DNA of 22,686 nucleotides from Actinomycetota bacterium. Lineage in GTDB: Bacteria > Actinomycetota > Acidimicrobiia > IMCC26256 > PALSA-610. Shown here one piece after another: positions 1 to 18,642 of the stretch. The translations under genes and the position numbers were made by a program. Location: contig JAWXCJ010000340.1 in NCBI GenBank assembly GCA_034408875.1, positions 1-22,686 of the forward strand, read 5' to 3'. The first letter of the stretch is position 1. Each line of letters begins with the position of its first letter. The notes beneath the pieces are model-generated. The model was not told the origin of the DNA, did no database searches, and saw only the letters and a program-made list of their open reading frames with translations.

Positions 1-564
1 GAGCGCTTCGAGCGATTCGAGGATCGCGGCCGTGACAGCGGCCGGAGGTTGCACCGCGTCGACCGGTACCAACACGTCGCGTTCGCGGTAGAAGCCGAGC
101 AGCGGAAGCGTCTCGGCATGGAAGACCTCGAGCCGCCGTTCGACGGCGGACTCGTCCGCGTCGTCGGTGCGGTCCGATTGTTCGCGCAACCCGAGCCGCG
201 CCCGCGCGACGTCGTCGGGCACGTCGAGGTAGATGACGGCATCGGCCGTCTCTCCCGCGCGCGCGGCCCGATCGAACGCGCGCTGTGCTTGTGCGAGTGT
301 GCGCGGAAAGCCGTCGAGGACATACCCGCCGTACGAAGACGCCGCGACGATGGCGTCGCCGACGACATCGAGGACGAGTTCATCGGGAACGAGGTCACCG
401 CGCTCGAGGTACGCCCGAACCTGGCGCCCGAGTTCGGTATCAGTGGCGACGTGGTCGCGCAGCAGTTCGCCGCTCGACACGTGCGGCACACCGAAATGCG
501 CCGCAAGGACGCTGCCTTGTGTGCCCTTTCCCGATCCCGGCGCGCCGAGGAGTACGAGTCGCAC
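1..564 (-). CDS. adk: Adenylate kinase (short, LID-less type). The C-terminal end runs off the window start. Start codon is GTG at 564.
   Basis: Reverse-strand translation gives VRLVLLGAPGSGKGTQGSVLAAHFGVPHVSSGELLRDHV...YVLDGFPRTLAQAQ...RLEVFHAETLPLLGFYRERDVLVPVDA. This contains the P-loop GxPGxGKGTQ, the DGFPR NMP-binding motif and the core/LID arginines of adenylate kinases. GC3 is near-saturated in this frame. An ATG immediately upstream is followed by a stop, so GTG is the start. Confidence 0.85.
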   Translation of the reverse strand, partial: MRLVLLGAPGSGKGTQGSVLAAHFGVPHVSSGELLRDHVATDTELGRQVRAYLERGDLVPDELVLDVVGDAIVAASSYGGYVLDGFPRTLAQAQRAFDRAARAGETADAVIYLDVPDDVARARLGLREQSDRTDDADESAVERRLEVFHAETLPLLGFYRERDVLVPVDAVQPPAAVTAAILESLEAL

Positions 565-672
565 GGCGCGCTACATCCCCGCCGAATTCGCCCGCTCTGC
601 GTGGGCGGGACCGAGCGATACACTGCGCACTACGAGCCGGGTTCCACCCTGCTTCGACGATCGAAGGTTCGA

Positions 673-897
673 ATGCGCTATCTGTGTCGTGTCTCGGACC
701 GTGAAGTGCATGCGTACGCGAACAATCGCCGCGACTTCTTCCTCAAGGCTGACGACACACTGTGGGCCCATGAGTCGCATTCTTGGCTCTTGTCTTCCCC
801 GTCGGGAGCGAAGCTCGCGCATCGTATCGGCGCCACGTACTACGACGCCGAGACGAACGCGCCGCTGTTCTTCGAAACGGCCGAGCTGCCTTCGTGA
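673..897 (+). CDS. Possible small hypothetical protein (74 aa) in a lower-GC island between adk and the HTH gene.
   Basis: ATG at 673 to TGA at 897 translates to MRYLCRVSDREVHAYANNRRDFFLKADDTLWAHESHSWLL...APLFFETAELPS. The composition is protein-like (Y, F, N, K, H, W), not the Arg/Ala/Pro-rich pattern of spurious high-GC ORFs, and GC3 is moderately high. I see no recognisable family and no clear RBS. Confidence 0.2.
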   Translation: MRYLCRVSDREVHAYANNRRDFFLKADDTLWAHESHSWLLSSPSGAKLAHRIGATYYDAETNAPLFFETAELPS

Positions 898-936
898 CGT
901 GATCTGACCGGTGAGGCAGAGCGCCTCGCCGACGCT

Positions 937-1227
937 TCAGGCGAACGCGGCGCGCAGTCGTTCGATCTTCGCCAACCGCTTGGCGGCGTCCTCGGGAGCG
1001 AGATCGTTGTCGGCGCGGACGGCCTTCTCCATCGCGTCGAAGCGGACGCCTTCGCGCTTGCGAATGTCCTTTTGCTCGGCTTTGGGACGGCGCTTCAGCG
1101 CCCGGCGGTAGGCCGATACGGCGGCGCGGGCGCTGTCGCACTTGAGGTCCGCGGCGATTTTCACGAACGACGTTCCCTCGCGACGCAGAGCGAGCACTTG
1201 ATCTTCGTGCTCGGTTGCTTTCGTCAC
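937..1227 (-). CDS. Small (96 aa) DNA-binding protein with a sigma-70 region-4 / LuxR-like helix-turn-helix and a Lys/Arg-rich coiled C-terminal tail.
   Basis: The ORF MTKATEHEDQVLALRREGTSFVKIAADLKCDSARAAVSAYRRALKRRPKAEQKD... contains the segment VLALRREGTSFVKIAADL-x6-VSAYRRALKR. This matches the region-4 HTH pattern of ECF sigma factors (vL.Lr..eG.S..eIA..Lg....tVks...RA...L). Codon usage is good and the gene is divergent from the STAS operon. Confidence 0.5.
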   Translation of the reverse strand: MTKATEHEDQVLALRREGTSFVKIAADLKCDSARAAVSAYRRALKRRPKAEQKDIRKREGVRFDAMEKAVRADNDLAPEDAAKRLAKIERLRAAFA

Positions 1228-1445
1228 TGATGCTCCTCGCGCTCGTGTGGCCTACGAGAGTACCGGCAAACCCGCAGGCTGCGGATCTGGAGGTGCTGGT
1301 CGGGGGGTATGCTGACATCAACCTGCTTGGGTCATGACTCGCAGGGAAGCCCAATTTGGGGAAGTGACGCGCAGACCGAGCCGAAGGTAGCGATGCTGCC
1401 CGGCCTACTCGCCTCTTTCCAGGTGAAGGAGAGAGAGGGAGGCCC

Positions 1446-1799
1446 GTGCCGGTACCTGTATTCACCCCGCGTAACACGATCGACCTCGCCGACGTCGCAG
1501 CGTTGCGCACGGAGCTCACTGCGATCATCGATCGCCACGGTGGCGTCGTGATCGACTGCGCGGACCTCGATCATGTATGCGGCGCGGGTATGCGGGTGCT
1601 GGAAGTCGCGTCTCGTCACGGCTCCGTTTCTCTCGCGAATGCGTCACCGGTCATGCGTTTGCTCGCTGCTGTCTTCGGACTGCACGAGCCCGAATTCCGC
1701 GTCGCACGGTTGCCGCGCGTCGAACACAGCTTCGATGCCGCGGCCCGATCGTTGCGCGCGCACCACCCACTCGTCGTCTGCGCGTCGGACGACAACTGA
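1446..1799 (+). CDS. STAS-domain anti-sigma-factor antagonist (SpoIIAA/RsbV-like), GTG start.
   Basis: 117 aa, TIDLADVAALRTELTAIIDRHGGVVIDCADLDHVCGAGMRVLEVASRHGSVSLANASPVMRLLAAVFGL. This has the STAS fold pattern (charged N-terminal helix, VVIDCADL..V.GAG..VL core, C-terminal amphipathic helix). A purine-rich RBS GAAGGAGAGAGAGGGAGG ends 3 nt before the GTG. Confidence 0.75.
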   Translation: MPVPVFTPRNTIDLADVAALRTELTAIIDRHGGVVIDCADLDHVCGAGMRVLEVASRHGSVSLANASPVMRLLAAVFGLHEPEFRVARLPRVEHSFDAAARSLRAHHPLVVCASDDN

Positions 1800-1821
1800 T
1801 GATGGCCTTGGAGGTCTCACC

Positions 1822-2079
1822 ATGAACACCACCACCGAATCTGGTGAGCTCAAACGTCGCATCGAGCGTCTGTCCGCTGAACGCGTGACGCTGTTCGCCC
1901 AGCCGAACGCTTCGGCCGCCGACAAGGCCCGGCTCAAGACACTCGAGCGCGAGTTGGACGAGTGCTATCTCGAACAACGTCGGCTGCGGGCGGTCAAGGA
2001 CGCGCGGCGGTTCGTTTCCGAGTACTCCATCGTTCGGGTCCCGCGTCCTGACACGTCGTCGACCGCGCCCAGGGACTAG
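1822..2079 (+). CDS. Small coiled-coil protein (86 aa). From memory it resembles the actinobacterial DUF2630 family.
   Basis: A strong RBS GGAGG lies 7 nt before ATG 1822. The protein MNTTTESGELKRRIERLSAERVTLF...LKTLERELDECYLEQRRLRAVKDARRFVS has the I-x-x-L-x-x-E and ELDxC(W/Y)-x-LxQRRA pattern that I recall for DUF2630. It sits 22 bp after the STAS gene and 67 bp before the RsbA-like gene, suggesting one operon. Confidence 0.55.
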   Translation: MNTTTESGELKRRIERLSAERVTLFAQPNASAADKARLKTLERELDECYLEQRRLRAVKDARRFVSEYSIVRVPRPDTSSTAPRD

Positions 2080-2146
2080 CTCCCGGACATTTTCGCCTTC
2101 ACGGTTGAAGCCCCGGGCGTAGGGTAAGAACGCCCGGGAGGCCCGC

Positions 2147-3103
2147 GTGGGCACAACTGAACAGCAACTCGACTGGCATGGCGATGCCTTCCGCCACGAG
2201 GCGCTCTTCTACGCGGGCGATCGCGATTACGTACGCCACACCGTGCCGTTCATCGACGCCGGCGTCGCGAACGGCGAACCGGTCCTCGTCCTCGTACCCG
2301 CGTCCAAACTTGCGTTGCTGCGTGAGCACGTTCCCACCCCGGCGCCCGGTGTCGTATTCGGCGACGTGGAGCGCATCGGCCGCAACCCCAACTGCATCAT
2401 CGCGGTGTTCGACCGGTTCGTCGCCGAGCACGCGCGTGACGGTCAACGGGCGCGTGGGATCGGCGAGCCGATCTGGGCGAGCCGAACGCCGGCCGAACTC
2501 GTCGAATGCCAACGGCACGAAGAGCTGATCAACCTCGCGTTCGCCGGCGCGAACGAAGTCTGGATTCTTTGCCCGTTCGACACCGACGCGCTCGACGAAT
2601 CCGTCATCGCCGAAGCGCACCGAAGTCATCCCTGGGTCACCGGCGAGCAGATGGCGCAGCGCAGCGCCGAGTACGTCGACCCCATCAGTGCGTACGACGC
2701 GCCCCTCGCCGAACCTGCGGTGCCGACCGACACGTTTGCATTCGACCGCGCATCGCTCGGGCATCTCCGACAGGTCGTTACCGCCCGGGCGGTCGCACAC
2801 GTCGACGCGGCCGGGGTCGACGAGATCGTGCTTGCCGTCAGCGAGTTCGCGACGAACAGCATTCGTCACGGAGGCGGACGAGGTTCGGTCCGGATATGGA
2901 CCGAAGGTACGGCGTTCGTGTGTGAGATACACGACGACGGGCGCATCACCGATCCGATGATCGGGCGGCGACGCCCGGCCGCAGAGGGAATCGGCGGCCG
3001 CGGCGTATGGCTCGTCAATCACCTGTGTGATCTGGTGCAGATCCGTTCGGCTGATTCCGGAACCGTCGTACGTTTGACCTTCGGAACCGTCGAGCCGACG
3101 TGA
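2147..3103 (+). CDS. MEDS-domain + HATPase_c anti-sigma regulatory factor (RsbA/RsbW-like Ser kinase), GTG start.
   Basis: N-terminus HEALFYAGDRDYVRHTVPFIDAGVANGEPVLVLVPASKLALLREHV matches the MEDS sensory domain signature. C-terminus LAVSEFATNSIRHGGGRGSVRIW...EIHDDGRITDP...GGRGVWLVNHLCDLVQIR is a GHKL/HATPase_c anti-sigma kinase core (N-box, G-boxes). RBS GGGAGG lies 5 nt upstream. Confidence 0.8.
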   Translation: MGTTEQQLDWHGDAFRHEALFYAGDRDYVRHTVPFIDAGVANGEPVLVLVPASKLALLREHVPTPAPGVVFGDVERIGRNPNCIIAVFDRFVAEHARDGQRARGIGEPIWASRTPAELVECQRHEELINLAFAGANEVWILCPFDTDALDESVIAEAHRSHPWVTGEQMAQRSAEYVDPISAYDAPLAEPAVPTDTFAFDRASLGHLRQVVTARAVAHVDAAGVDEIVLAVSEFATNSIRHGGGRGSVRIWTEGTAFVCEIHDDGRITDPMIGRRRPAAEGIGGRGVWLVNHLCDLVQIRSADSGTVVRLTFGTVEPT

Positions 3104-3291
3104 ACCGGCCGCCGTCACCTGCGATCGGAACACGTCGAAGGGCCTGGGAGGATCAGGCACGGGAGCCGGCGAACGCGGTGAGTGTCAGCGTCAGTCGTTC
3201 GGGTCCGCGGACCGCGACCGGGGCAACATACAAGCCAACGGTCTCGTAGAGGCAGGCTGACACGCGCGGCGCGAACGCGCGAGGCTGCGCC

Positions 3292-4536: not shown

Positions 4537-5802
4537 ATGGAGGCCGCGCTCGAAGTCCCGAGAACTGCCCGCGCGGCCCGGACGGGCGTGCAGACCGGTG
4601 CACTTGCCCTGGCCGGCCTCGCCTCGCTCGGAGCCGGCGCGATCCACGCGGCCGCGATGGGTGTGCACAACGAGCACGACCAGGCCGTGCTCGCGTTCGG
4701 GATCGTCGCCGCGTTCCAACTCGGTTGGGGCGCCGCCGCGCTGACGTCGAGCAAGCGGTGGGTGGGTGTGGTCGGCGCGGTCGGGAACGCGGCCATCTTC
4801 GCCGGCTGGGTGCTCGCCAAGACGTCTGGTATCTCGTTCGTCGACGGACTCGAGGCGAGCGAGTTGGTGCAGTGGGCCGACGGCGTCGCGGTCGCGTTGG
4901 CCCTGCTGTCCGTCCTGGGTGTGATTGCAGTCGCGGTGCGCGGGCGCCGGCTGCTCAGCTCGCCGACCGCGTTCCCAATCGCGACGGTCGCGATCGCCGC
5001 GATAACCGTGAGCGCGATGGTCTCGGCCGCGAACGGCCACGCGCACGCGGCGGGCGGCGACGGTCACGGGAACGAAGCGACCGCCGCGGCTGCCGGCGAC
5101 GGCCACGGCGACGACCACGGTGACGCGCCGGCGACCGACGCGACCGTCGACCACGGCGACGACCACGGCGACGACCACGTCGACGACCACGTCGAAGCAG
5201 TAGCGAAGCCCTACGACCCCGCCGAGCCGATCGACCTGAGCGGCACCGACGGTGTCACACCCGCCCAGCAGGCCGCGGCCGAGAACCTCATCGCGTCGAC
5301 GTTGCTCGACTTGCCGCGCTGGGCCGATCCCGCGACCGCCGAAGCCGAAGGCTGGCAATCGATTCGCGACGGCGCAACCGGTTACGAGCATTACATCAAC
5401 CGATCGCTGATCGGAGACGGTCGTATCCTCGACCCCGACTATCCCGAGTCGCTGGTGTACACGGTCAACCGATCAACCGGGCAGAAGGAACTGGCGGCGG
5501 CCATGTTCATGCTCGAGCCGGGCGCGACACTCGACAACGCACCCAACGTCGGCGGCAACCTCATGCAGTGGCATATCCACAACAACCTGTGCTTCACGGC
5601 CCCACCGGATTCGCGCATCGCGGGTCTTACCAACCCCGACGGCACCTGCAACGCCCCGCTCGTCACGGGAATCCAACTGCCGATGGTGCACGTCTGGATC
5701 AAGTCCCACCCGTGCGGGCCATTCTCCGCGCTCGAAGGAGTCGGTGGCGGGCAAATCAAAGAGGGCGAAGAACGCCTGTGCGACGCCGCTCATGGCGCGT
5801 GA
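4537..5802 (+). CDS. Polytopic membrane protein P1 with a His/Asp-rich linker and a conserved Cys/His C-terminal extracytoplasmic domain. Uncharacterised family; paralogue of the gene at 14095-15276.
   Basis: AGGAGG lies 7 nt before the ATG. The N-terminal ~150 aa contain 4-5 hydrophobic helices with embedded His (IHAAAMGVHNEHD). Next comes GHAHAAGGDGHGNEATAAAAGDGHGDDHGDAPATDATVDHGDDHGDDHVDDHVE. The C-terminal ~170 aa carry motifs AEAEGW, GYEHY, LVY, LEPGA, WHIHNNLCF, MVHVWIKSHPCGPFSA that are shared with P2. Confidence 0.8.
   Translation: MEAALEVPRTARAARTGVQTGALALAGLASLGAGAIHAAAMGVHNEHDQAVLAFGIVAAFQLGWGAAALTSSKRWVGVVGAVGNAAIFAGWVLAKTSGISFVDGLEASELVQWADGVAVALALLSVLGVIAVAVRGRRLLSSPTAFPIATVAIAAITVSAMVSAANGHAHAAGGDGHGNEATAAAAGDGHGDDHGDAPATDATVDHGDDHGDDHVDDHVEAVAKPYDPAEPIDLSGTDGVTPAQQAAAENLIASTLLDLPRWADPATAEAEGWQSIRDGATGYEHYINRSLIGDGRILDPDYPESLVYTVNRSTGQKELAAAMFMLEPGATLDNAPNVGGNLMQWHIHNNLCFTAPPDSRIAGLTNPDGTCNAPLVTGIQLPMVHVWIKSHPCGPFSALEGVGGGQIKEGEERLCDAAHGA
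5035..5196 (+). repeat. In-frame His/Asp-rich low-complexity tract inside P1, including a 12-bp tandem repeat (gaccacggcgac / gaccacgtcgac, about 3.75 copies at 5149-5193).
   Basis: There are 13 His in 54 residues. The DNA shows direct tandem 12-mers encoding (D)DHG / DDHV. Confidence 0.7.
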
Positions 5803-11965: not shown

Positions 11966-12277
11966 CTACTCCGAGGTCGAGGGCTCCTCGGGCGGTGCGG
12001 GCTCCGGCGCCGGATCAGCCGGTGGTGCCGGTTCGACCGGCGGAGGGGGAACGTAGCTGTCGAGCGCCGGGGTTGTCGTTTCCTGAGGTCGGTTCGCCTT
12101 CTTGCGCAGGGCGAGCGGCACCGCGATCCCGATGAGCAACCCGACGAGGGGGAGGATGAGCAGCAGGATGCTGTCGAGGGCGATGACGCCGAATATCAAC
12201 AGGTCGACACCGATCAGGAGGCCGAGGAAGAAGCCCGAGATGGCACCGAGGACGGGACGGCCGCGTTTGCGCATCAT
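11966..12277 (-). CDS. Small membrane protein (about 103 aa) with two TM helices and a Pro-rich C-terminal tail.
   Basis: MMRKRGRPVLGAISGFFLGLLIGVDLLIFGVIALDSILLLILPLVGLLIGIAVPLALRKK...PPPPVEPAPPADPAPEPAPPEEPSTSE. Its start ATG overlaps the TGA of the upstream gene (ATGATG/TGA), indicating translational coupling. The Arg-rich N-terminal extension in the ORF track is an artefact. Confidence 0.5.
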   Translation of the reverse strand: MMRKRGRPVLGAISGFFLGLLIGVDLLIFGVIALDSILLLILPLVGLLIGIAVPLALRKKANRPQETTTPALDSYVPPPPVEPAPPADPAPEPAPPEEPSTSE

Positions 12278-12813
12278 CCGCCTGCCCGAATCGCGACGAC
12301 GAGACCGACTGCGCTGAGTGCGGTGAGGACGAGCGCGGGAATGGCGGCCGGGCTGCCGATCCCGCTCTCGCCGATCGTGACGGTGATCGAGCCCTCGCAG
12401 CGGATGCCCTCTTCTTCGTGGTATCCGCTCACCGGGATGGGAATGCCTTCGAGGATGCTCGGCACGTCGTATTCGTACGTACCGTTCTTGGCGTACTCGT
12501 CGCTCGTGTCGCCCCAACTGCCGACGGTCACGGATCCGATCCCGCCGGGCAGGTCGACGACGACCTCGCCGCCGACCGCGCGTTCGGTGGGTGCGCTCGG
12601 CGAGTCGACCGCGCCCTGCCAAGCAACGTCGCCACTGGCGGGCAGACCCTCGGCCTCGTCCATGACCTTCGGGTCGTAGGTCTCACCGTCGACGACGCCG
12701 GACGCCGAGCACGGGTCGTCGAGCTTGGCGTCGGCCGGTGGAGCGCTCAGCAACATCACCGCCCCGGCGAACCCCGCGACGGCCAGAAGTCGCCATCCCA
12801 CGCGTCGGCGCAT
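12274..12813 (-). CDS. Secreted, C-terminally anchored protein (signal peptide + about 120-aa ectodomain + C-terminal TM).
   Basis: MRRRVGWRLLAVAGFAGAVMLLSAPPADA is a Sec-type signal peptide with an ADA-K cleavage site. The mature domain has two Cys. The C-terminal AAIPALVLTALSAVGLVVAI segment is a TM anchor. GAGGG lies upstream of the ATG. Confidence 0.55.
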   Translation of the reverse strand: MRRRVGWRLLAVAGFAGAVMLLSAPPADAKLDDPCSASGVVDGETYDPKVMDEAEGLPASGDVAWQGAVDSPSAPTERAVGGEVVVDLPGGIGSVTVGSWGDTSDEYAKNGTYEYDVPSILEGIPIPVSGYHEEEGIRCEGSITVTIGESGIGSPAAIPALVLTALSAVGLVVAIRAGG

Positions 12814-12892: not shown

Positions 12893-14008
12893 ATGCCGAC
12901 CTTGAACGATGCTGCCCTGACCGACCTGCTCGCCCGGGCCCAGCGCGAAATCGACGAGGGGCACGTCCCTTCGTGTCAGATGGCGCTCGCCCTCGACGGG
13001 GAGGTGATCTTCGAGGCGACGCTCGGTGACGCGGCCCCGGATTCGCGCTACACGATCTTCTCGGCGACGAAGCCGGTCGTCGCCGGGGCGATGTGGATCC
13101 TGATCGGCGAGGGCGCGATCGACGTCGACCGCACCGTCGCCTCGTACATCCCCGAGTTCGCGGCGAACGGCAAGGACGCGATCACCGTCGAGCAGGTGAT
13201 GCTGCACACGTCGGGGTTCCCCCGCGCGCCGTTCGCCGCGCTCGACTGGGACGACCGGGAACGGCGCCTCGCCCGCTTCGACCGGTGGCGGACGAACTGG
13301 GAACCGGGGACGCGCTTCGAGTACCACCCGACGTCGGCCCACTGGGTGCTCGCCGAACTCATCGAACGGGCCTCGGGCATGGACTTCCGCGAGTTCATCA
13401 AGACGCGCATTCTCGACCCGCTCGGACTCACGAAACTGCGCGTCGGTGTTCCCGCCGCGGAGCAGGACGACATCAACGACCTGGTCAGCACCGGCGAGCA
13501 CGCGTCGGCCGAGGAGTTGATGGCGGCCATCGGTATCGCCGAACTGCCGCTCACCGAGGTGACACCCCAGGCGCTGATCGACATGAACGCGCCCGCCGTG
13601 CGCGCCGTCGGTGTGCCCGGCGGTGGTGGAGTGTCGACCGCCGGCGACCTCACCCGCTACTACCAGGCCCTGCTCCACGACCGGGCCGGGCTGTGGAAGC
13701 CGGAGGTCCTGGCCGACGCCAAGACGGCGGTGCGCAACACCTTCCCCGACTACATGGGGACGCCGGCCAACCGCACCCGGGGGCTGGTCGTCGCCGGATC
13801 TGACAATAAGTCCCATATGCGGGGGATGGGTCACACCGTTTCCGCCGGCGCGTTCGGGCACAACGGCGCCGCCGGTCAGATCGCGTGGGCCGACCCCGAA
13901 ACCGGCGTCTCGTTCGCGTATCTCACCGACGGCAACGACCTCCACGAGCTGCGCCAATGGCGGCGTACCTCCGCGTTGGCGAGTCGCGCGGGGAATTGTG
14001 TGACCTGA
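12893..14008 (+). CDS. Serine hydrolase of the beta-lactamase / class-C esterase family. No signal peptide.
   Basis: It contains the S-x-x-K active-site motif (FSATKPV), Y-x-x motifs and the C-terminal H-x-G (GHNGAAGQIAW) typical of PBP-fold class-C beta-lactamase/EstB esterases. The ORF-track N-terminal extension (from 12725) is Arg/Pro-rich and overlaps the divergent upstream gene, so I use ATG 12893 (MPTLNDAALTDLL). Confidence 0.7.
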   Translation: MPTLNDAALTDLLARAQREIDEGHVPSCQMALALDGEVIFEATLGDAAPDSRYTIFSATKPVVAGAMWILIGEGAIDVDRTVASYIPEFAANGKDAITVEQVMLHTSGFPRAPFAALDWDDRERRLARFDRWRTNWEPGTRFEYHPTSAHWVLAELIERASGMDFREFIKTRILDPLGLTKLRVGVPAAEQDDINDLVSTGEHASAEELMAAIGIAELPLTEVTPQALIDMNAPAVRAVGVPGGGGVSTAGDLTRYYQALLHDRAGLWKPEVLADAKTAVRNTFPDYMGTPANRTRGLVVAGSDNKSHMRGMGHTVSAGAFGHNGAAGQIAWADPETGVSFAYLTDGNDLHELRQWRRTSALASRAGNCVT

Positions 14009-14011
14009 CAG

Positions 14012-14039
14012 TTGCGCAGGGGTGCGCGACTCGTAAGAT
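14012..14039 (+). promoter_or_regulatory. Candidate promoter for P2: TTGCGC - 16 nt - TAAGAT. It is immediately followed by the TTGCAC-N5-GTGCAC inverted repeat.
   Basis: The -35/-10-like pair lies in the 86-bp gap before P2. The palindromic TTGCACtgctcGTGCAC (14039-14055) overlaps the predicted TSS region. Confidence 0.25.
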
Positions 14040-14094
14040 TGCACTGCTCGTGCACACCACCTTCGTGCGCGGTGTTTCCAATGGGGGGAACCGA

Positions 14095-15276
14095 GTGGAC
14101 GTTCGCAAGGTCGGAATCTGGATGGTCGCCGTCGGCGGCGCCGCACTCTCGGTCGGAATCGTGCTCGACGCGATCCAGCAGGCCGACGACCCGACGCTCG
14201 CGTCGAAGGAAGGGATCTTCGACCTTTCCCGCTTCGCGCACGCGTTGTTTTTCGGCGGCATGGCTGTCGCTGTGCTCGGGTTGTTTGCGTTGCTCGTCGG
14301 TGCGCACCTCTACGGCGGCGAGGGACGCGTCACGGTCGGACGCCGCATCATGCAGGTCGGTGCGCCGATCGCGGCAGTCATCGTGCTCGGGGCGACGGCC
14401 GCAGCCGCGAGCAACACCGCGTTGGGTGAACCGAACGGCGACGCGGCCGCGACCGAAGAAGTTGCCACAGCGGAGGCCGATGCCGCCGCGACCGACGAGA
14501 TGGCGGAGCACGCCCACGGTGACGAAGCCACCGCGGCCGACGCGACTGGTGAAACCAGCGAGCACGCGCACGGTCCCGTCATCGAAGGCACCGCGACCGG
14601 CGACTCGCCGTGCGAGGTCGCGTCACCGACTCCCGCGTCACCCGGTCAGGTCGGTACCGGTGAAGGTGGATCCGAAGAAGTGATCGGCGAGCACGGCGGC
14701 CGCGGCATGGTGAAGCAGACGCCGCTCACCGCCGACGAAATGCAGGCGCTTCAGGAGCAGATGGTCCAGGCCCGCACCGTCATCGAAAAGTACCCGACCG
14801 TCGCCGACGCCGAAGCGGGCGGCTACCACAAGTCGACCGTGTACGTGCCGTGCATCGGTGCGCACTACACGAATATCGCGCTCGTGCCCGGGTTCGACCC
14901 GACCGCGCCTTCGGAGTTGCTCTACGACGGTTCGACGCCCGACGCCAAGATCGTCGGCCTCAGCTACCTCGTCCTCGAACCGAGCGGGGAACCGCCCGAA
15001 GGTTTCGCCGGCAAGAACGACCACTGGCACCAGCACAACGCCAACGGCGGGCTCTGCTTCGGAGCCGGCCAGGTCGTCATCGGCGGCGAGGAGATGACCG
15101 AGGAAGAGTGCACCGAGATCGGCGGCACCAAGCGCGAGCTCACGAACATCTGGATGATGCACGCGTGGGTCGTCCCCGGCTTCGAATGCAGCTGGGGCGT
15201 CTTCGCCGGTGAGTGTCCCGAACTCGGTGGCCGCGCCGGCGGCACCGCCTGGGACGAACCCGCCCCCGCCAGCTAA
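14095..15276 (+). CDS. Membrane protein P2, a paralogue of P1: TM N-terminus, acidic/His-containing linker with two EHAHG motifs, conserved Cys/His C-terminal domain. Start uncertain (GTG 14095 or ATG 14119).
   Basis: The C-terminal domain aligns with P1: ADAEAGGY/AEAEGW, GAHYTN/GYEHYIN, SELLYD/ESLVYT, LVLEPSG/FMLEPGA, DHWHQHNANGGLCF/MQWHIHNNLCF, MMHAWVVPGFECSWGVFAGE/MVHVWIKSHPCGPFSALEG. The ORF-track start at 13885 overlaps the hydrolase and is rejected. Confidence 0.7.
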   Translation: MDVRKVGIWMVAVGGAALSVGIVLDAIQQADDPTLASKEGIFDLSRFAHALFFGGMAVAVLGLFALLVGAHLYGGEGRVTVGRRIMQVGAPIAAVIVLGATAAAASNTALGEPNGDAAATEEVATAEADAAATDEMAEHAHGDEATAADATGETSEHAHGPVIEGTATGDSPCEVASPTPASPGQVGTGEGGSEEVIGEHGGRGMVKQTPLTADEMQALQEQMVQARTVIEKYPTVADAEAGGYHKSTVYVPCIGAHYTNIALVPGFDPTAPSELLYDGSTPDAKIVGLSYLVLEPSGEPPEGFAGKNDHWHQHNANGGLCFGAGQVVIGGEEMTEEECTEIGGTKRELTNIWMMHAWVVPGFECSWGVFAGECPELGGRAGGTAWDEPAPAS

Positions 15277-15977
15277 CCCAACGGCGACCAGTTCGCGCTG
15301 CGCAACAACCGGCTCTGCCAGTCGTCGCGGACTTCGAGCGCGTCGTGCATCCACGTGCCGGGTTCCTTCACGCGCGCGGGGAGTTCGTGGGTGAACAGCG
15401 CGGGCAGCCGCTCGGGGTAGTCGACGCGTTGCCACAGCACGACTTCGCGCCGCCGGGGTGAACCGATCGCGGTCTGGAACACGCCGAGCAGTGTGAGCAG
15501 CGAACGCGTGGTCTGCTGTTCGAGGCTCGGCGCGTAGTGGGTGCGTGCCTTCTCGAGGTACGTGTCGAGCATGCCTTCGTAGGGCCACGCGCTGTCCTGC
15601 ATGTAGAGGACGGGGTCGTGTTCGCGCCCGTCGGTCGGCACCGCCGCCAGGTCGATCTCCCGGAGTGGCGACCACTCGACGGCGAGGAGCACCTTCCCGC
15701 GCACCTCGTGGCGCATGCGGTCGGTGTCGGCGGCCCACGACCGCAGGTCGCCGCGCTGCACCCGTTCGGCCAGGCGCTCGTACGCGTTCCCGTCGCGCAG
15801 GGCGGTGATCGTGACTACGTGGTACGCCCGGCCGGTGCCGTGGGCGATCCGCAGGAAGTAGAGGAGCCGCGCCCCGTCGTCTTCGGCGACCTCGGGCATG
15901 AAGCCCTCGCGGAACGTCCGCTCGAAGGCTTCCTCGTGGCGTCCGGCCACGGTGTGGAGCTCGTGCAGGAACAACAT
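15273..15977 (-). CDS. Tandem NIPSNAP/Dabb-like (ferredoxin-like alpha+beta barrel) protein.
   Basis: Two repeats, MLFLHELHTVAGRHEEAFERTFREGFMPEVAEDDGARLLYFLRIAHGTGRAYHVVTITALRDGNAYERLAERV and PVLYMQDSAWPYEGMLDTYLEKARTHYAPSLEQ..., follow the NIPSNAP pattern (hydrophobic strand, G..E.F, late aromatic, h.a.s..a.e.). ATG at 15977 was chosen because the upstream ORF-track extension is low-complexity. Confidence 0.45.
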   Translation of the reverse strand: MLFLHELHTVAGRHEEAFERTFREGFMPEVAEDDGARLLYFLRIAHGTGRAYHVVTITALRDGNAYERLAERVQRGDLRSWAADTDRMRHEVRGKVLLAVEWSPLREIDLAAVPTDGREHDPVLYMQDSAWPYEGMLDTYLEKARTHYAPSLEQQTTRSLLTLLGVFQTAIGSPRRREVVLWQRVDYPERLPALFTHELPARVKEPGTWMHDALEVRDDWQSRLLRSANWSPLG

Positions 15978-16071
15978 GGTGGGGCAGCCTCGCGCAATTC
16001 GGACACCGGCTCGACTCCGTGCCCCGACAACGGGGTTCACCGGGTCGCCCGAGACGCCGATCACTTCCGGG

Positions 16072-18642
16072 ATGGGCGATTCGCGGCGTCGGGAGTTGGT
16101 CGGGATGCACCCGGACCCCGTCGCGCTCGTCGCCCTCTCGCCGTCGCTCACCGCGGTCCTCGACGCCGACGGGGTGCCCCGCTACCTGAGCCCGAGCGCG
16201 GCGGCCCTGTTCGACACGGTGCACCCCGACGACACGACGGTGCTGGAGACCGCGTTCGCCGAAGCCGTCCTGCACCCGGGCCGGGCGGTGCCGGTGCACT
16301 TCCGTGCGCATGCCGGCGGCCGGATGCGGCACCTTGCCGGGCAGTTTCTCAACCGCGTCGAAGACCCGCGTGTCGGTGGGGTCGTGTTGCACCTCACCGA
16401 CGTCAGCTCGGAGTCGACGCTCGCGGTCATCGCACGCGACTTCATGGACCGCGGCCGGCACGACCTCGATGCGTGCGTTGTCGACGCGCTCGCCGCACTG
16501 GCCGACCTCGCCGATGCCGATCGTGCCGCGGTGTTCCACGTCCGCGAGAACGGGTTGGCCGCCGAACTCACCCACGAGTGGTGCCGTGACCCGAGCACGA
16601 GCCGCGCGGGCGACTATCAGAACGTGCCGCTCGACTTGGTGCCGCGCCTCGTCGACCTCCTGCTCGACCTCCGCACGACCGTGATCAACATCGCGGAGCG
16701 GCCCGAGTTCGCGGCGGACGCGGCTGCGATCGGCGCGGCGGACACCCGGTCGTGCGCGCTCGCGCCGCTGATCGTCGATGGTCGTCTGGTCGGATGCGTC
16801 GCGCTCGAGTTCATCGGCCGCGAACGCGCGTGGCAGTCGGCCACGCTGTCGCTCCTCGACCAGTTCGCGCCGGTGTTGTCGTCCGCACTGGAGCGGCGCC
16901 GCATCGAGCGCGAGTTCCGCGACGCGCAAACACGATTCGAACAGGCGTGGAAACACGCGCCCATCGGCATGGTCATGCTGTCCCGCGAGGGTGAGTTGCT
17001 ACGGGTAAACCCGGCGTTCTGCGAACTGCTCGGCTACCGCGAGTGGGAGCTGATCGGCGCGCCGTTTCCCGAGCTGCTGCACCCCACCGACCTCCGTGAG
17101 TACGAGGCCAACGTCGCGCGGCTCGACGCGGGCGAGGACGATCGGCTGCAACTGGAACTCCGGTTCGGTCGCCGCGTGCCGGGCGAGTCGGGGGAAGACG
17201 GGACGTGGTGCCGGGTCAGCTTGTCGCTCGTGCGCGACGACGACCGCGAGCGCACCTATCTCATCGGGCAGATCGAAGACGTCACGCAACGCCGCGAGTT
17301 CGAAGCACGTCTCGAGTACGAGGCGACGCACGACGCGCTCACCGGGCTGCCACAGCGCAACACACTCCTCGAAAGTCTCGAACGAGCGCTGGCCGGCGCG
17401 ACGCGCCGAGGCGACAACGTCGCGGTGTTGTTCATCGACGTCGACAACTTCAAGCGTGTGAACGACACGCTCGGGCACGCCGCGGGCGACGAGTTGCTCC
17501 AGTCGTTCGCCGGGAGGCTGTCGCGCGCAGTGCGCGCGTCGGACATGGCGGCCCGGCTCGGCGGGGACGAGTTCGTCGTCATGTGCACCGACCTTGCCGA
17601 CCCCCGCCAGGTCGTGCGGGTCGCCCAACGGATCCTGCACCTCGTCGAGCAACCGTTCCGCGTACGCGGCGTCGAGGTGTTCGTCGGCGCGAGTATTGGC
17701 ATCGCCGTCGCCGAGTCCGGTGTCGACGCGGCGACGCTGCTGCGCCACGCGGACACCGCGGCGTACCGGGCCAAGGACCGGGGCCGGAACCGGTACGAGA
17801 TCTTCGACGACGAACTCCGCGCCGCGGTCGCGCGCCGGCTCGAGACCGAAACCGCGCTGCGCCGGGCGATCGAAGACGACGAACATCGTCTGCATTTCCA
17901 GCCGATCATCGACGTGTCGTCGGGCCGGGTGGCGGCGTTCGAGGTGCTCGGCCGTTGGGACGACGACCGGCACGGTTCCGAGCGCTCTCACGATTTCCAG
18001 ACGATCGCCGAGGAAACCGGCCTCGTTGTCGCGATCGGCAAGCGGCTCATCCACGACGCGTGCGAACAGCTCGCCCGGTGGCAACGCACCTTCCGTGACG
18101 ACGCGCCGGGCATCTCGATCAACATCTCGGCCCGGCAGCTTGCGCATCCGTCGCTGCTCGACGACACCCGCGCCGCGTTGCGCAAGACGGGAGCCCGGGC
18201 GGCCGACCTGACGTTCGAGATTTCCGAGAGCGTGCTCATGGACGACACGCAGACGAGCATCGCCCGGCTCGAAGAGCTGCGCGCGCTCGGAGTGCGCATT
18301 GCCATCGACGACTTCGGCGCCGGCTATTCGTCGCTCAGCTATCTCCGCCGGTTACCGGTCGACGCCATCAAGATCAATCACGCGTTTGTCGTCGAGCTCG
18401 GTATCGACCACGACGGCTCGACGATCGTCGCGGCGGTGATCAACCTCGCGCGCGCGCTGGGTTTGGACATCGCCGCCGACGGTGTCGAAAGCATCGAACA
18501 CGTCGCGGCTCTGGTCACGCTCGGCTGCGACCGCATGCAGGGTGGATACTTCTCGGTTCCGCTGAACGAGGCGGATGCCACCGAGATGTTGCGCTGCCCG
18601 GTGCGTCAGGACTTGCCGGGGCCGACCACGTCGAGCACGTAG
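16072..18642 (+). CDS. Multidomain c-di-GMP signalling protein: PAS - GAF - PAS - GGDEF - EAL. Start uncertain (ATG 16072 or 16105).
   Basis: The GGDEF domain has an intact RLGGDEFVV signature with upstream DALTGLPQRN and FIDVDNFKRVND. The EAL domain has LHFQPIID, E-V-L, DDFGAGYSSLSYLRRLPVDAIKI and QGGYFSVP. N-terminal PAS-like and GAF-like segments are present (e.g. IGMVMLSREGELLRVNPAFCELLGY). The ORF-track start at 15898 overlaps the divergent NIPSNAP gene and is rejected. Confidence 0.8.
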   Translation: MGDSRRRELVGMHPDPVALVALSPSLTAVLDADGVPRYLSPSAAALFDTVHPDDTTVLETAFAEAVLHPGRAVPVHFRAHAGGRMRHLAGQFLNRVEDPRVGGVVLHLTDVSSESTLAVIARDFMDRGRHDLDACVVDALAALADLADADRAAVFHVRENGLAAELTHEWCRDPSTSRAGDYQNVPLDLVPRLVDLLLDLRTTVINIAERPEFAADAAAIGAADTRSCALAPLIVDGRLVGCVALEFIGRERAWQSATLSLLDQFAPVLSSALERRRIEREFRDAQTRFEQAWKHAPIGMVMLSREGELLRVNPAFCELLGYREWELIGAPFPELLHPTDLREYEANVARLDAGEDDRLQLELRFGRRVPGESGEDGTWCRVSLSLVRDDDRERTYLIGQIEDVTQRREFEARLEYEATHDALTGLPQRNTLLESLERALAGATRRGDNVAVLFIDVDNFKRVNDTLGHAAGDELLQSFAGRLSRAVRASDMAARLGGDEFVVMCTDLADPRQVVRVAQRILHLVEQPFRVRGVEVFVGASIGIAVAESGVDAATLLRHADTAAYRAKDRGRNRYEIFDDELRAAVARRLETETALRRAIEDDEHRLHFQPIIDVSSGRVAAFEVLGRWDDDRHGSERSHDFQTIAEETGLVVAIGKRLIHDACEQLARWQRTFRDDAPGISINISARQLAHPSLLDDTRAALRKTGARAADLTFEISESVLMDDTQTSIARLEELRALGVRIAIDDFGAGYSSLSYLRRLPVDAIKINHAFVVELGIDHDGSTIVAAVINLARALGLDIAADGVESIEHVAALVTLGCDRMQGGYFSVPLNEADATEMLRCPVRQDLPGPTTSST

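Follow-up and report, generated by a model that had tools for sequence, protein, structure and literature searches.

A putative extracytoplasmic four-histidine domain, possibly metal-binding, in a membrane-tethered protein of Acidimicrobiia

His-rich stretches, and sites that combine His, Met and Trp, are typical of periplasmic proteins that handle copper, zinc or nickel (e.g., CusF, CopC, ZnuA and ZinT). The protein considered here, P2, is encoded in contig JAWXCJ010000340.1 of an Actinomycetota bacterium from the class Acidimicrobiia (assembly GCA_034408875.1); the whole 22,686-bp contig, which has a GC content of 67% and the locus-tag prefix SGJ13_, is referred to as the window. P2 resembles CusF, CopC/PcoC, PCuAC, YcnI and ZnuA/ZinT/AdcAII in that it appears to be tethered and extracytoplasmic, with a flexible His-rich region and a cluster of His, Met and Trp residues, a likeness in its possible mode of action. 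It differs from CusF/CopC/ZnuA-type systems in having neither a sequence or fold match to them nor neighbouring genes for metal homeostasis. Comparison of P2 with its many homologues suggests, as the preferred but tentative reading, that its C-terminal part is a tethered extracytoplasmic metal-binding domain.

A conserved domain with four candidate ligand histidines

P2 appears to be a membrane-tethered protein with a C-terminal domain of approximately 190-230 residues that is probably stabilised by disulfides. Its features are given below, with superfamily-wide conservation values computed over 78 domains non-redundant at 60% identity. P1 denotes a related protein encoded in the same window.

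14095..15276, + strand: P2 coding sequence, 393 aa, GTG start and TAA stop, identified from the open reading frame (ORF), the GC content at third codon positions (GC3), the N-termini of orthologues and the ratio of non-synonymous to synonymous substitution rates (dN/dS)
14107..14424, + strand: N-terminal membrane module with three hydrophobic helices (approximately residues 5-28, 46-75 and 85-110), from a hydropathy scan
14425..14580, + strand: acidic Ala/Thr/Glu linker, residues 111-162 (52 residues, including 14 Asp/Glu and 4 His), predicted to be disordered (predicted local distance difference test, pLDDT, <50)
14506-14520 and 14560-14574, + strand: EHAHG motifs in the sequence, residues 138-142 and 156-160
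14581..15273, + strand: conserved C-terminal domain, predicted to be extracytoplasmic, residues 163-393, from alignment A1 with 70 invariant columns
14611..14853, + strand: C173 and C253, a Cys pair of the P2 subfamily, invariant in A1 and absent from P1 and many other subfamilies
14863..14865, + strand: His257 (AHYTN), proposed metal ligand on a predicted β-strand, 0.96 conserved
15025..15039, + strand: W311-H312-Q-H314-N315, both His proposed metal ligands, each 0.99 conserved
15055..15111, + strand: C321 and C339, superfamily-wide Cys pair, 0.99 and 0.97 conserved
15154..15168, + strand: M354-x-H356-x-W358 on a predicted β-strand, 0.91, 0.96 and 0.95 conserved
15187..15216, + strand: C365 and C374, subfamily-specific and invariant in A1, in the conserved C-terminal tail (PGFECSWGVFAGECPELGG)

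The four His residues are accompanied by G306 (1.00), G243 (0.99) and F370 (0.92). D268 is conserved at 0.81 and the Glu of a P-E pair at 0.74, and the remaining Cys and most polar residues are variable. The resulting superfamily signature reads G-[YWF], H-[YFW], D-P-x-x-P-E, G-x4-W-H-x-H, L-C, C, M-x-H-x-W and G-x-F, with conservation of 0.81-1.0 except at P-E. P2 carries this signature as G243/Y244, H257, D268-P272, G306, W311-H314, L320-C321, C339, M354-W358 and G368-F370, with P-E shifted to P-S-E.

A joint profile of the P1 and P2 families was searched against 1.84 billion cluster representatives (clusters at 50% identity) and recovered 3291 superfamily clusters at E<=1e-3, 1627 at 1e-10 and 434 at 1e-30. 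More than 1100 homologues are of the P2 type and more than 1600 of the P1 type. An earlier note on this DNA had allowed that the motifs shared by P1 and P2 might prove not to be conserved beyond this genome; they recur across the 3291 clusters. The P2 type occurs in 177 species-level genomes, virtually every one of which carries the label Acidimicrobiia, Acidimicrobiales or Microthrix; the few other taxon labels probably reflect mis-binned metagenome-assembled genomes (MAGs). By these profile comparisons, the P1/P2 domain defines a large uncatalogued superfamily, recognised here and confined to Acidimicrobiia.

An AlphaFold2 (AF2) model of the domain alone, built from a 107-sequence alignment, gave a predicted template modelling score (pTM) of 0.75, with pLDDT of approximately 85-98 over domain residues 50-200 and approximately 90 in the core. 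The predicted fold is mixed α/β: a long helix is followed by a short one and then by a sheet of roughly eight strands, accompanied by two short helices. The confidently modelled core covers approximately residues 212-360 of P2, and the segment homologous to P1 approximately residues 211-372. The side chains of M354, H356 and W358 would share one face of their predicted strand, as judged from their i, i+2, i+4 spacing. All six Cys of P2 lie within the C-terminal domain, and C321 and C339 probably form a disulfide, because the domain is placed outside the cytoplasm and the Cys count is even. Across the superfamily, C365 is conserved at 0.35 and C374 at 0.04, and the tail that carries them has a pLDDT <50.

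The extracytoplasmic placement comes from relatives with another kind of anchor. The hydropathy scan and an AF2 model of P2 (helices 3-31, 47-73 and 81-106, pLDDT 76-96) agree on the roughly three N-terminal helices that had been proposed from the sequence. Many relatives of approximately 290 aa possess a signal peptide and lipobox (e.g., ...LVAAGCSSS) in place of this transmembrane module. Since these lipoproteins carry the same domain, the domain would be extracytoplasmic and P2 would adopt an N-in, C-out topology with essentially no cytoplasmic portion. A sensor role for P2 is unlikely, given that about four residues at the N-terminus would be cytoplasmic and there is no cytoplasmic domain.

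The linker between the membrane module and the domain contains two EHAHG motifs in an acidic Ala/Thr/Glu-rich spacer, as described in the earlier note. The motif pair is the product of an imperfect 54-nt tandem duplication (14477-14520 / 14531-14574, 70% identical), which indicates that the linker evolves by repeat expansion and fits its higher dN/dS. This ratio is 0.18 for the linker, 0.07 for the transmembrane region, 0.07 for the C-terminal domain and 0.09 overall, all values being derived from one comparison with the 93%-identical orthologue L006. Of the polytopic members of the superfamily, 89% have one or more HxH motifs in the linker, and in 81% His makes up 5% or more of it (median 7.5-11%); the linkers of lipoprotein members have a median His content of 0%. 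Thus, the His-rich arm goes with the polytopic anchor rather than with the domain.

Relationship to P1 and to described families

The second copy of the domain in the window belongs to P1:

4537..5802, + strand: P1, 421 aa (NCBI SGJ13_16570), with a membrane module of 4-5 helices, an HG/DDHG linker and one copy of the domain
5203-5799, + strand: P1 copy of the homologous domain

BLASTP aligns P2 with P1 at E 0.015 (26% identity, 89 gaps), and hhalign aligns the two families with a probability of 97.7% and E 2.5e-12 over 143 columns. When the profiles are confined to the domain, the match to that of P1 has an E-value of 1.3e-10, and the match to the extra first domain carried by two-domain relatives of P1 reaches 8.5e-13. 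A combined domain hidden Markov model (HMM) gives 189 bits for P2 and 261 bits for P1 and matches no other gene in the window. The alignment pairs, from P2 to P1, H257 with H285, D268-P...P272 with D299-P...P303, W311-H312-x-H314-N with W345-H346-x-H348-N, L320-C321 with L351-C352, C339 with C371, M354-x-H356-x-W358 with M383-x-H385-x-W387, and C365 with C393. The collinear motif blocks that the earlier note had aligned by eye are therefore borne out (G-Y/W, H-Y-x-N, DPxxP(E/S)(S/E)LxY, WHxHN, LC, C, MxHxW, C and F).

The same note had called P1 and P2 paralogues. This holds for approximately 145 residues of the homologous C-terminal domain and fails for the membrane modules, between which hhalign detected no homology (probability 0.8%). 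On alignment evidence, their paralogy is true at the level of one ancient domain only. A recent local duplication is not supported, in view of the identity of approximately 25%, the separate Acidimicrobiia-wide subfamilies, the single shared domain and the non-homologous anchors. The claim of extra Cys pairs in P2 also stands in part: EEECTEIGG and FECSWGVFAGECPELGG are both present in the translation, but the Cys of EEEC (C339) is common to P1 (C371), and it is C173, C253 and the position of C374 that are specific to P2.

The P1 subfamily is like P2 in possessing the same four His, the Met, the Trp and three aligned Cys, together with a His-rich linker (HG/DDHG in P1, with 9 His in 56 residues) and a tethered, presumably extracytoplasmic arrangement. 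Unlike P2, it has neither C173/C253 nor the GTATGxSPCE arm; the PGFECSWGVFAGECPELGG tail is missing as well, and a C-terminal CDxxHG is found instead. The P1 membrane module carries conserved His and Glu (GAGAIHAAAxGxHxEH); its invariant residues are H37, H44, E46, N84, W91 and H168, and no Pfam model describes it. P1 itself is a minority single-domain form, as most members of its subfamily have two tandem domains (approximately 610-680 aa). Anchors, linkers and domains also occur in other combinations: P0244 joins a P1-type anchor to a P2-type domain, and P0286 (524 aa) joins a P2-type anchor to a DHDHG-repeat linker of approximately 200 residues. Linkers of this length, made of DHDHGTTTTTPGSTDTTQPH-type repeats, are found in some superfamily relatives, P0286 among them, and represent an extreme expansion of the kind of His/Asp linker that P1 and P2 possess.

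Searches of P1 and P2 gave no match in Pfam-A and nothing that reached the cut-off in NCBIfam, and 40 long divergent superfamily members gave no Pfam-A match. Sequences in the PDB, when searched with the profile of the family, gave chance matches only (E >1), and comparison of the domain fold with solved structures found no match. Weak matches to DUF7475 in the transmembrane module of a third subfamily were below the cut-off. Cluster look-up of ten divergent members returned 'hypothetical protein' for all of them, and P2-type homologues are named likewise except for two JGI labels of 'Spy/CpxP' (P0059 and P0065). A literature search for a described family of this kind returned nothing relevant.

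Several named families were rejected. The Spy/CpxP label has no Pfam support, and the modelled domain is mixed α/β rather than all-helical. The match of P2 to the SCO2097 family morphological protein (NF058603; 14.2 bits, E 0.042) covers the transmembrane region only and compares with a cut-off of 110 bits. Membership of P2 in CopC, CusF, PCuAC, YcnI or ZinT/ZnuA finds neither a sequence nor a fold match, and P2 does not have the fold and motif order that characterise the HxH-type metalloenzymes, namely LAS/M23 peptidases, cupins and α-carbonic anhydrase (HxxxD...HxH, cupin motifs, or an HxH with a further His some 23 residues on).

The only recurrent weak Pfam match in the domain core is DUF1264 (PF06884), the family of plant oil-body-associated protein 1 and of bacterial OBAP lipoproteins, which appeared in 8 of 107 members with a best E-value of 0.036. 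For the domain of P2, the score is 11.3 bits (E 0.27), below the gathering threshold of 25 bits. For a closer comparison, seven bacterial 'OBAP family protein' genes from plasmids were fetched with a bait sequence that itself scores 251 bits on PF06884. Against these seven, the superfamily alignment gave an hhalign probability of 69.3% and E 4.3e-5 over 58 columns (LLYDG...KIVGLSYLV...WHQH), a result below significance given the approximately 25,000 families screened. In a forced extended alignment, HHY, WHxH and WHTW of OBAP fall in register with AHY, WHQH and MHAW of P2, and the His of these three motifs are invariant in all seven OBAPs. P1-type profiles alone gave no signal against OBAP (probability <1%), and an OBAP query against solved structures found none.

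OBAP/DUF1264 would be collinear with the domain in H-Y, L-[IL]-[YF]-D-G, [RK]-[LI]-[IV]-G-[LIV]-x-Y-[LI]-[IV], W-H-x-H and H-x-W, and its bacterial members are lipoprotein-like and secreted, as are the short four-His relatives. It differs in having no C321/C339 pair and no DPxxPE; as aligned, it also lacks the region of the long leading helix, and neither polytopic anchors nor His-rich linkers occur in it. The link between OBAP/DUF1264 and the four-His domain is thus a suggestive lead. The literature search for DUF1264 returned 15 incidental mentions, with the term in none of the titles or abstracts. The OBAP/DUF1264 genes of L097 (Salmonella plasmid NZ_CP110932.1) and L096 (Sinorhizobium plasmid) adjoin hdeB and an NrsF-family gene. 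hdeB encodes an acid-stress periplasmic chaperone, and the OBAP/DUF1264 family may have a stress context.

Metal site, enzyme or structural domain

Four near-invariant His (one alone, two in an HxH and one in M-x-H-x-W), taken together with the placement of the domain outside the cytoplasm and its conserved pair of Cys, lead us to infer a mononuclear metal site. The linkers add independent, circumstantial support. One metal ion would be held by H257, H312, H314 and H356, with M354 and W358 sharing one side of the sheet. In polytopic forms, the flexible His/Asp/Glu linker would serve as an arm of low affinity. At the cell surface it would pick up a metal of the Cu, Zn or Ni class and then deliver it either to the domain or to the membrane module. 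The pairing of a His-rich arm with a polytopic anchor hints at a hand-off that involves the membrane module. Several points weigh against this scheme. Lipoprotein members keep the domain with no His-rich linker, so that the linker would be dispensable for the function of the domain, and the surveyed neighbourhoods of P2, P1 and the third subfamily contain no metal transporters, regulators or cuproenzymes. The conserved N-terminal arm of the domain (GTATGxSPCE...GEHGxRGM) and its C-terminal tail are poorly modelled, which leaves part of the functional surface out of view. Furthermore, the invariant His could be catalytic or structural, or could be ligands of another cofactor.

The catalytic option can be stated more fully: the domain would be an enzyme outside the cytoplasm (a metallohydrolase or an oxidase, for instance) that acts on an envelope or external substrate. 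Its His cluster would be a catalytic metal centre and not a place for storing or transferring metal, and the transmembrane or lipid anchor would simply hold it in place. An HxH and a distant His on β-strands resemble catalytic mononuclear sites, D268 and the Glu of P-E provide near-conserved acidic or polar residues close by, and the 70 invariant columns of A1 and the domain dN/dS of 0.07 denote very high conservation. Interchangeable polytopic and lipoprotein anchors are likewise typical of surface enzymes. We nevertheless think this account unlikely, though a serious rival. The same holds for a further reading, that the domain binds no metal and is a divergent OBAP/DUF1264-like ligand-binding or structural module, in which the His would have a structural, pH-sensing or other role and the linkers would serve the membrane modules. 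The weak DUF1264 matches, the hhalign alignment with HY, WHxH and HxW in register when extended, the lipoprotein-like character of bacterial OBAPs and the tendency of His-rich linkers to follow the polytopic anchor all speak for this. However, the OBAP link falls below significance on both the profile and Pfam scores, the four His are conserved in OBAP as well and are equally compatible with a metal site, and four near-invariant His together with a Met and a Trp would be unusual for a purely structural role. The wider proposal of a new His4 metal-binding fold, tethered to the membrane with Met and Trp close to the site and joined to repeat-expanding His arms on polytopic modules, which would be both a surface system of Acidimicrobiia for the capture or buffering of a transition metal and a distant cousin of OBAP/DUF1264, is doubtful, if conceivable.

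Gene model, neighbourhood and significance

P2 is a real gene under purifying selection. The high GC content of the window produces many spurious long ORFs, and about 14 plausible genes are left after a GC3 filter. That P2 is itself such a chance frame is exceedingly improbable, considering its GC3 of 0.84 from 14095 onward (vs 0.61 for 13885-14094), its more than 1100 homologues, its dN/dS of 0.09 and the distribution of mismatches with L006 over the three codon positions (11/11/79, i.e., 79 of 101 at the third). Translation would begin at the GTG that the earlier note had put forward, preceded by one further feature:

14083..14090, + strand: Shine-Dalgarno-like GGGGGGAA, 4 nt ahead of GTG 14095

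This start is supported by full-length orthologues, which begin with M/V-DVRK exactly at the position of GTG 14095, by GGGGGGAA, by the third-position bias of substitutions within the coding sequence and by the DNA alignment of P2 with L006, where a 1-nt indel at 14091/14092 means that no start upstream of 14095 is in frame in both genomes. The frame break rules out GTG 13885, which had already been considered unlikely, and the upstream ATG of database entry P0001. The 439-aa start of P0001 (JGI, a 99%-identical protein, approximately 13957-15276), which overlaps the beta-lactamase-fold gene, was rejected as wrong on the comparative evidence. ATG 14119 is a formal alternative to GTG 14095. Scans for promoters and terminators near P2 gave no signal exceeding the expectation from shuffled sequence, and an Rfam scan of the whole window gave no match.

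Six unrelated genes occupy the 8.3 kb that separate P1 from P2. Four of them encode an MFS transporter, an SPFH protein, a MOSC protein and an acyl-CoA dehydrogenase, the fifth is unknown and the sixth is the beta-lactamase-fold gene. According to the combined domain HMM, a second domain gene within 6-8 kb is present in one of 86 related loci. The sole such locus with two adjacent domain genes, L036 (1686-2702 and 3347-4300), has them as a local pair in tandem, which differs from the layout of the window, and its MAG label of Burkholderiales is probably a binning error. The view in the earlier note that divergent paralogues are kept in one locus is not upheld by this distribution. The accompanying idea, that P1 and P2 are co-located paralogues with divided functions (different metals, or a sensor versus a transporter accessory), draws on their shared 22.7-kb contig, their common domain and the differing His motifs of their linkers. 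It is very improbable, in light of the distance and intervening genes, the rarity of co-location, the identity of approximately 25%, the unrelated membrane modules, the separate conserved synteny of each protein and the lack of a cytoplasmic signalling domain in either. Functional divergence between the P1 and P2 subfamilies is possible.

Gene context was surveyed in 80 P2-type loci and seven other loci. The best-conserved neighbour of P2 is a convergent unknown gene (approximately 235-240 aa), which lies directly 3' of the P2 orthologue in 24 loci and no more than four genes away in 28. It is followed in the P2 synteny by a class-V aminotransferase gene and then WS/DGAT, and 13 loci have a beta-lactamase-fold gene upstream of P2. 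P1 relatives have an enoyl-CoA hydratase gene upstream and an MFS gene downstream. The third subfamily (approximately 540 aa, with one protein from the cultured Dermatobacter hominis) is solitary too. No consistent co-oriented operon partner was found in these neighbourhoods, and the genes of all three subfamilies are apparently monocistronic and situated in housekeeping syntenic regions.

Some further observations concern the window itself. Its convergent gene (15273-15977, - strand, approximately 234 aa, MLFLHELHTVAGRHEEAF..., within the listed ORF 15273..16151) has no Pfam match, and its TAG stop overlaps the TAA stop of P2 (cTAa, 15273-15276). Between this gene and the aminotransferase gene lies a GAF-PAS-GGDEF-EAL gene (15898-18642, + strand), which looks like a lineage-specific insertion because it is absent from that position in the related loci L001 and L002. 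Its ATG 15898 overlaps the divergent upstream gene, and the true start is probably downstream. An ORF of 179 aa between the acyl-CoA dehydrogenase and beta-lactamase-fold genes (12274-12813, - strand, GC3 0.83) has no Pfam match. Positions 1-3250 show a weaker coding signal (GC3 0.72-0.78) with ORFs overlapping on both strands (e.g., 2147-3103, +, and 2099-3160, -).

Soils, fresh water, oceans and activated sludge all harbour abundant Acidimicrobiia, of which few have been cultured; little is known of their surface biology. Thousands of their proteins contain the four-His domain, on membrane anchors of various kinds, and two of the genes are in this window. Purifying selection on the domain is strong, yet Pfam and NCBIfam have no entry for it and the PDB no structural relative. 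A concrete target is now defined, namely a soluble domain of approximately 190-230 residues with four candidate ligand His. It is one among many domains of unknown function and its interest is moderate. Even if the domain proves ordinary, the annotation is corrected in its start codon and domain boundaries, and P1 and P2 are shown not to be a co-evolving pair. If the OBAP/DUF1264 link is true, the domain would be tied to a family distributed widely among plants, fungi and proteobacteria, for which the searches here gave neither a function nor a solved structure, although that link alone would not reveal what the domain does. The joint His4/OBAP reading, if true, would provide the first mechanistic hypothesis, a metal at HY/WHxH/HxW, for a family of plant oil-body proteins.

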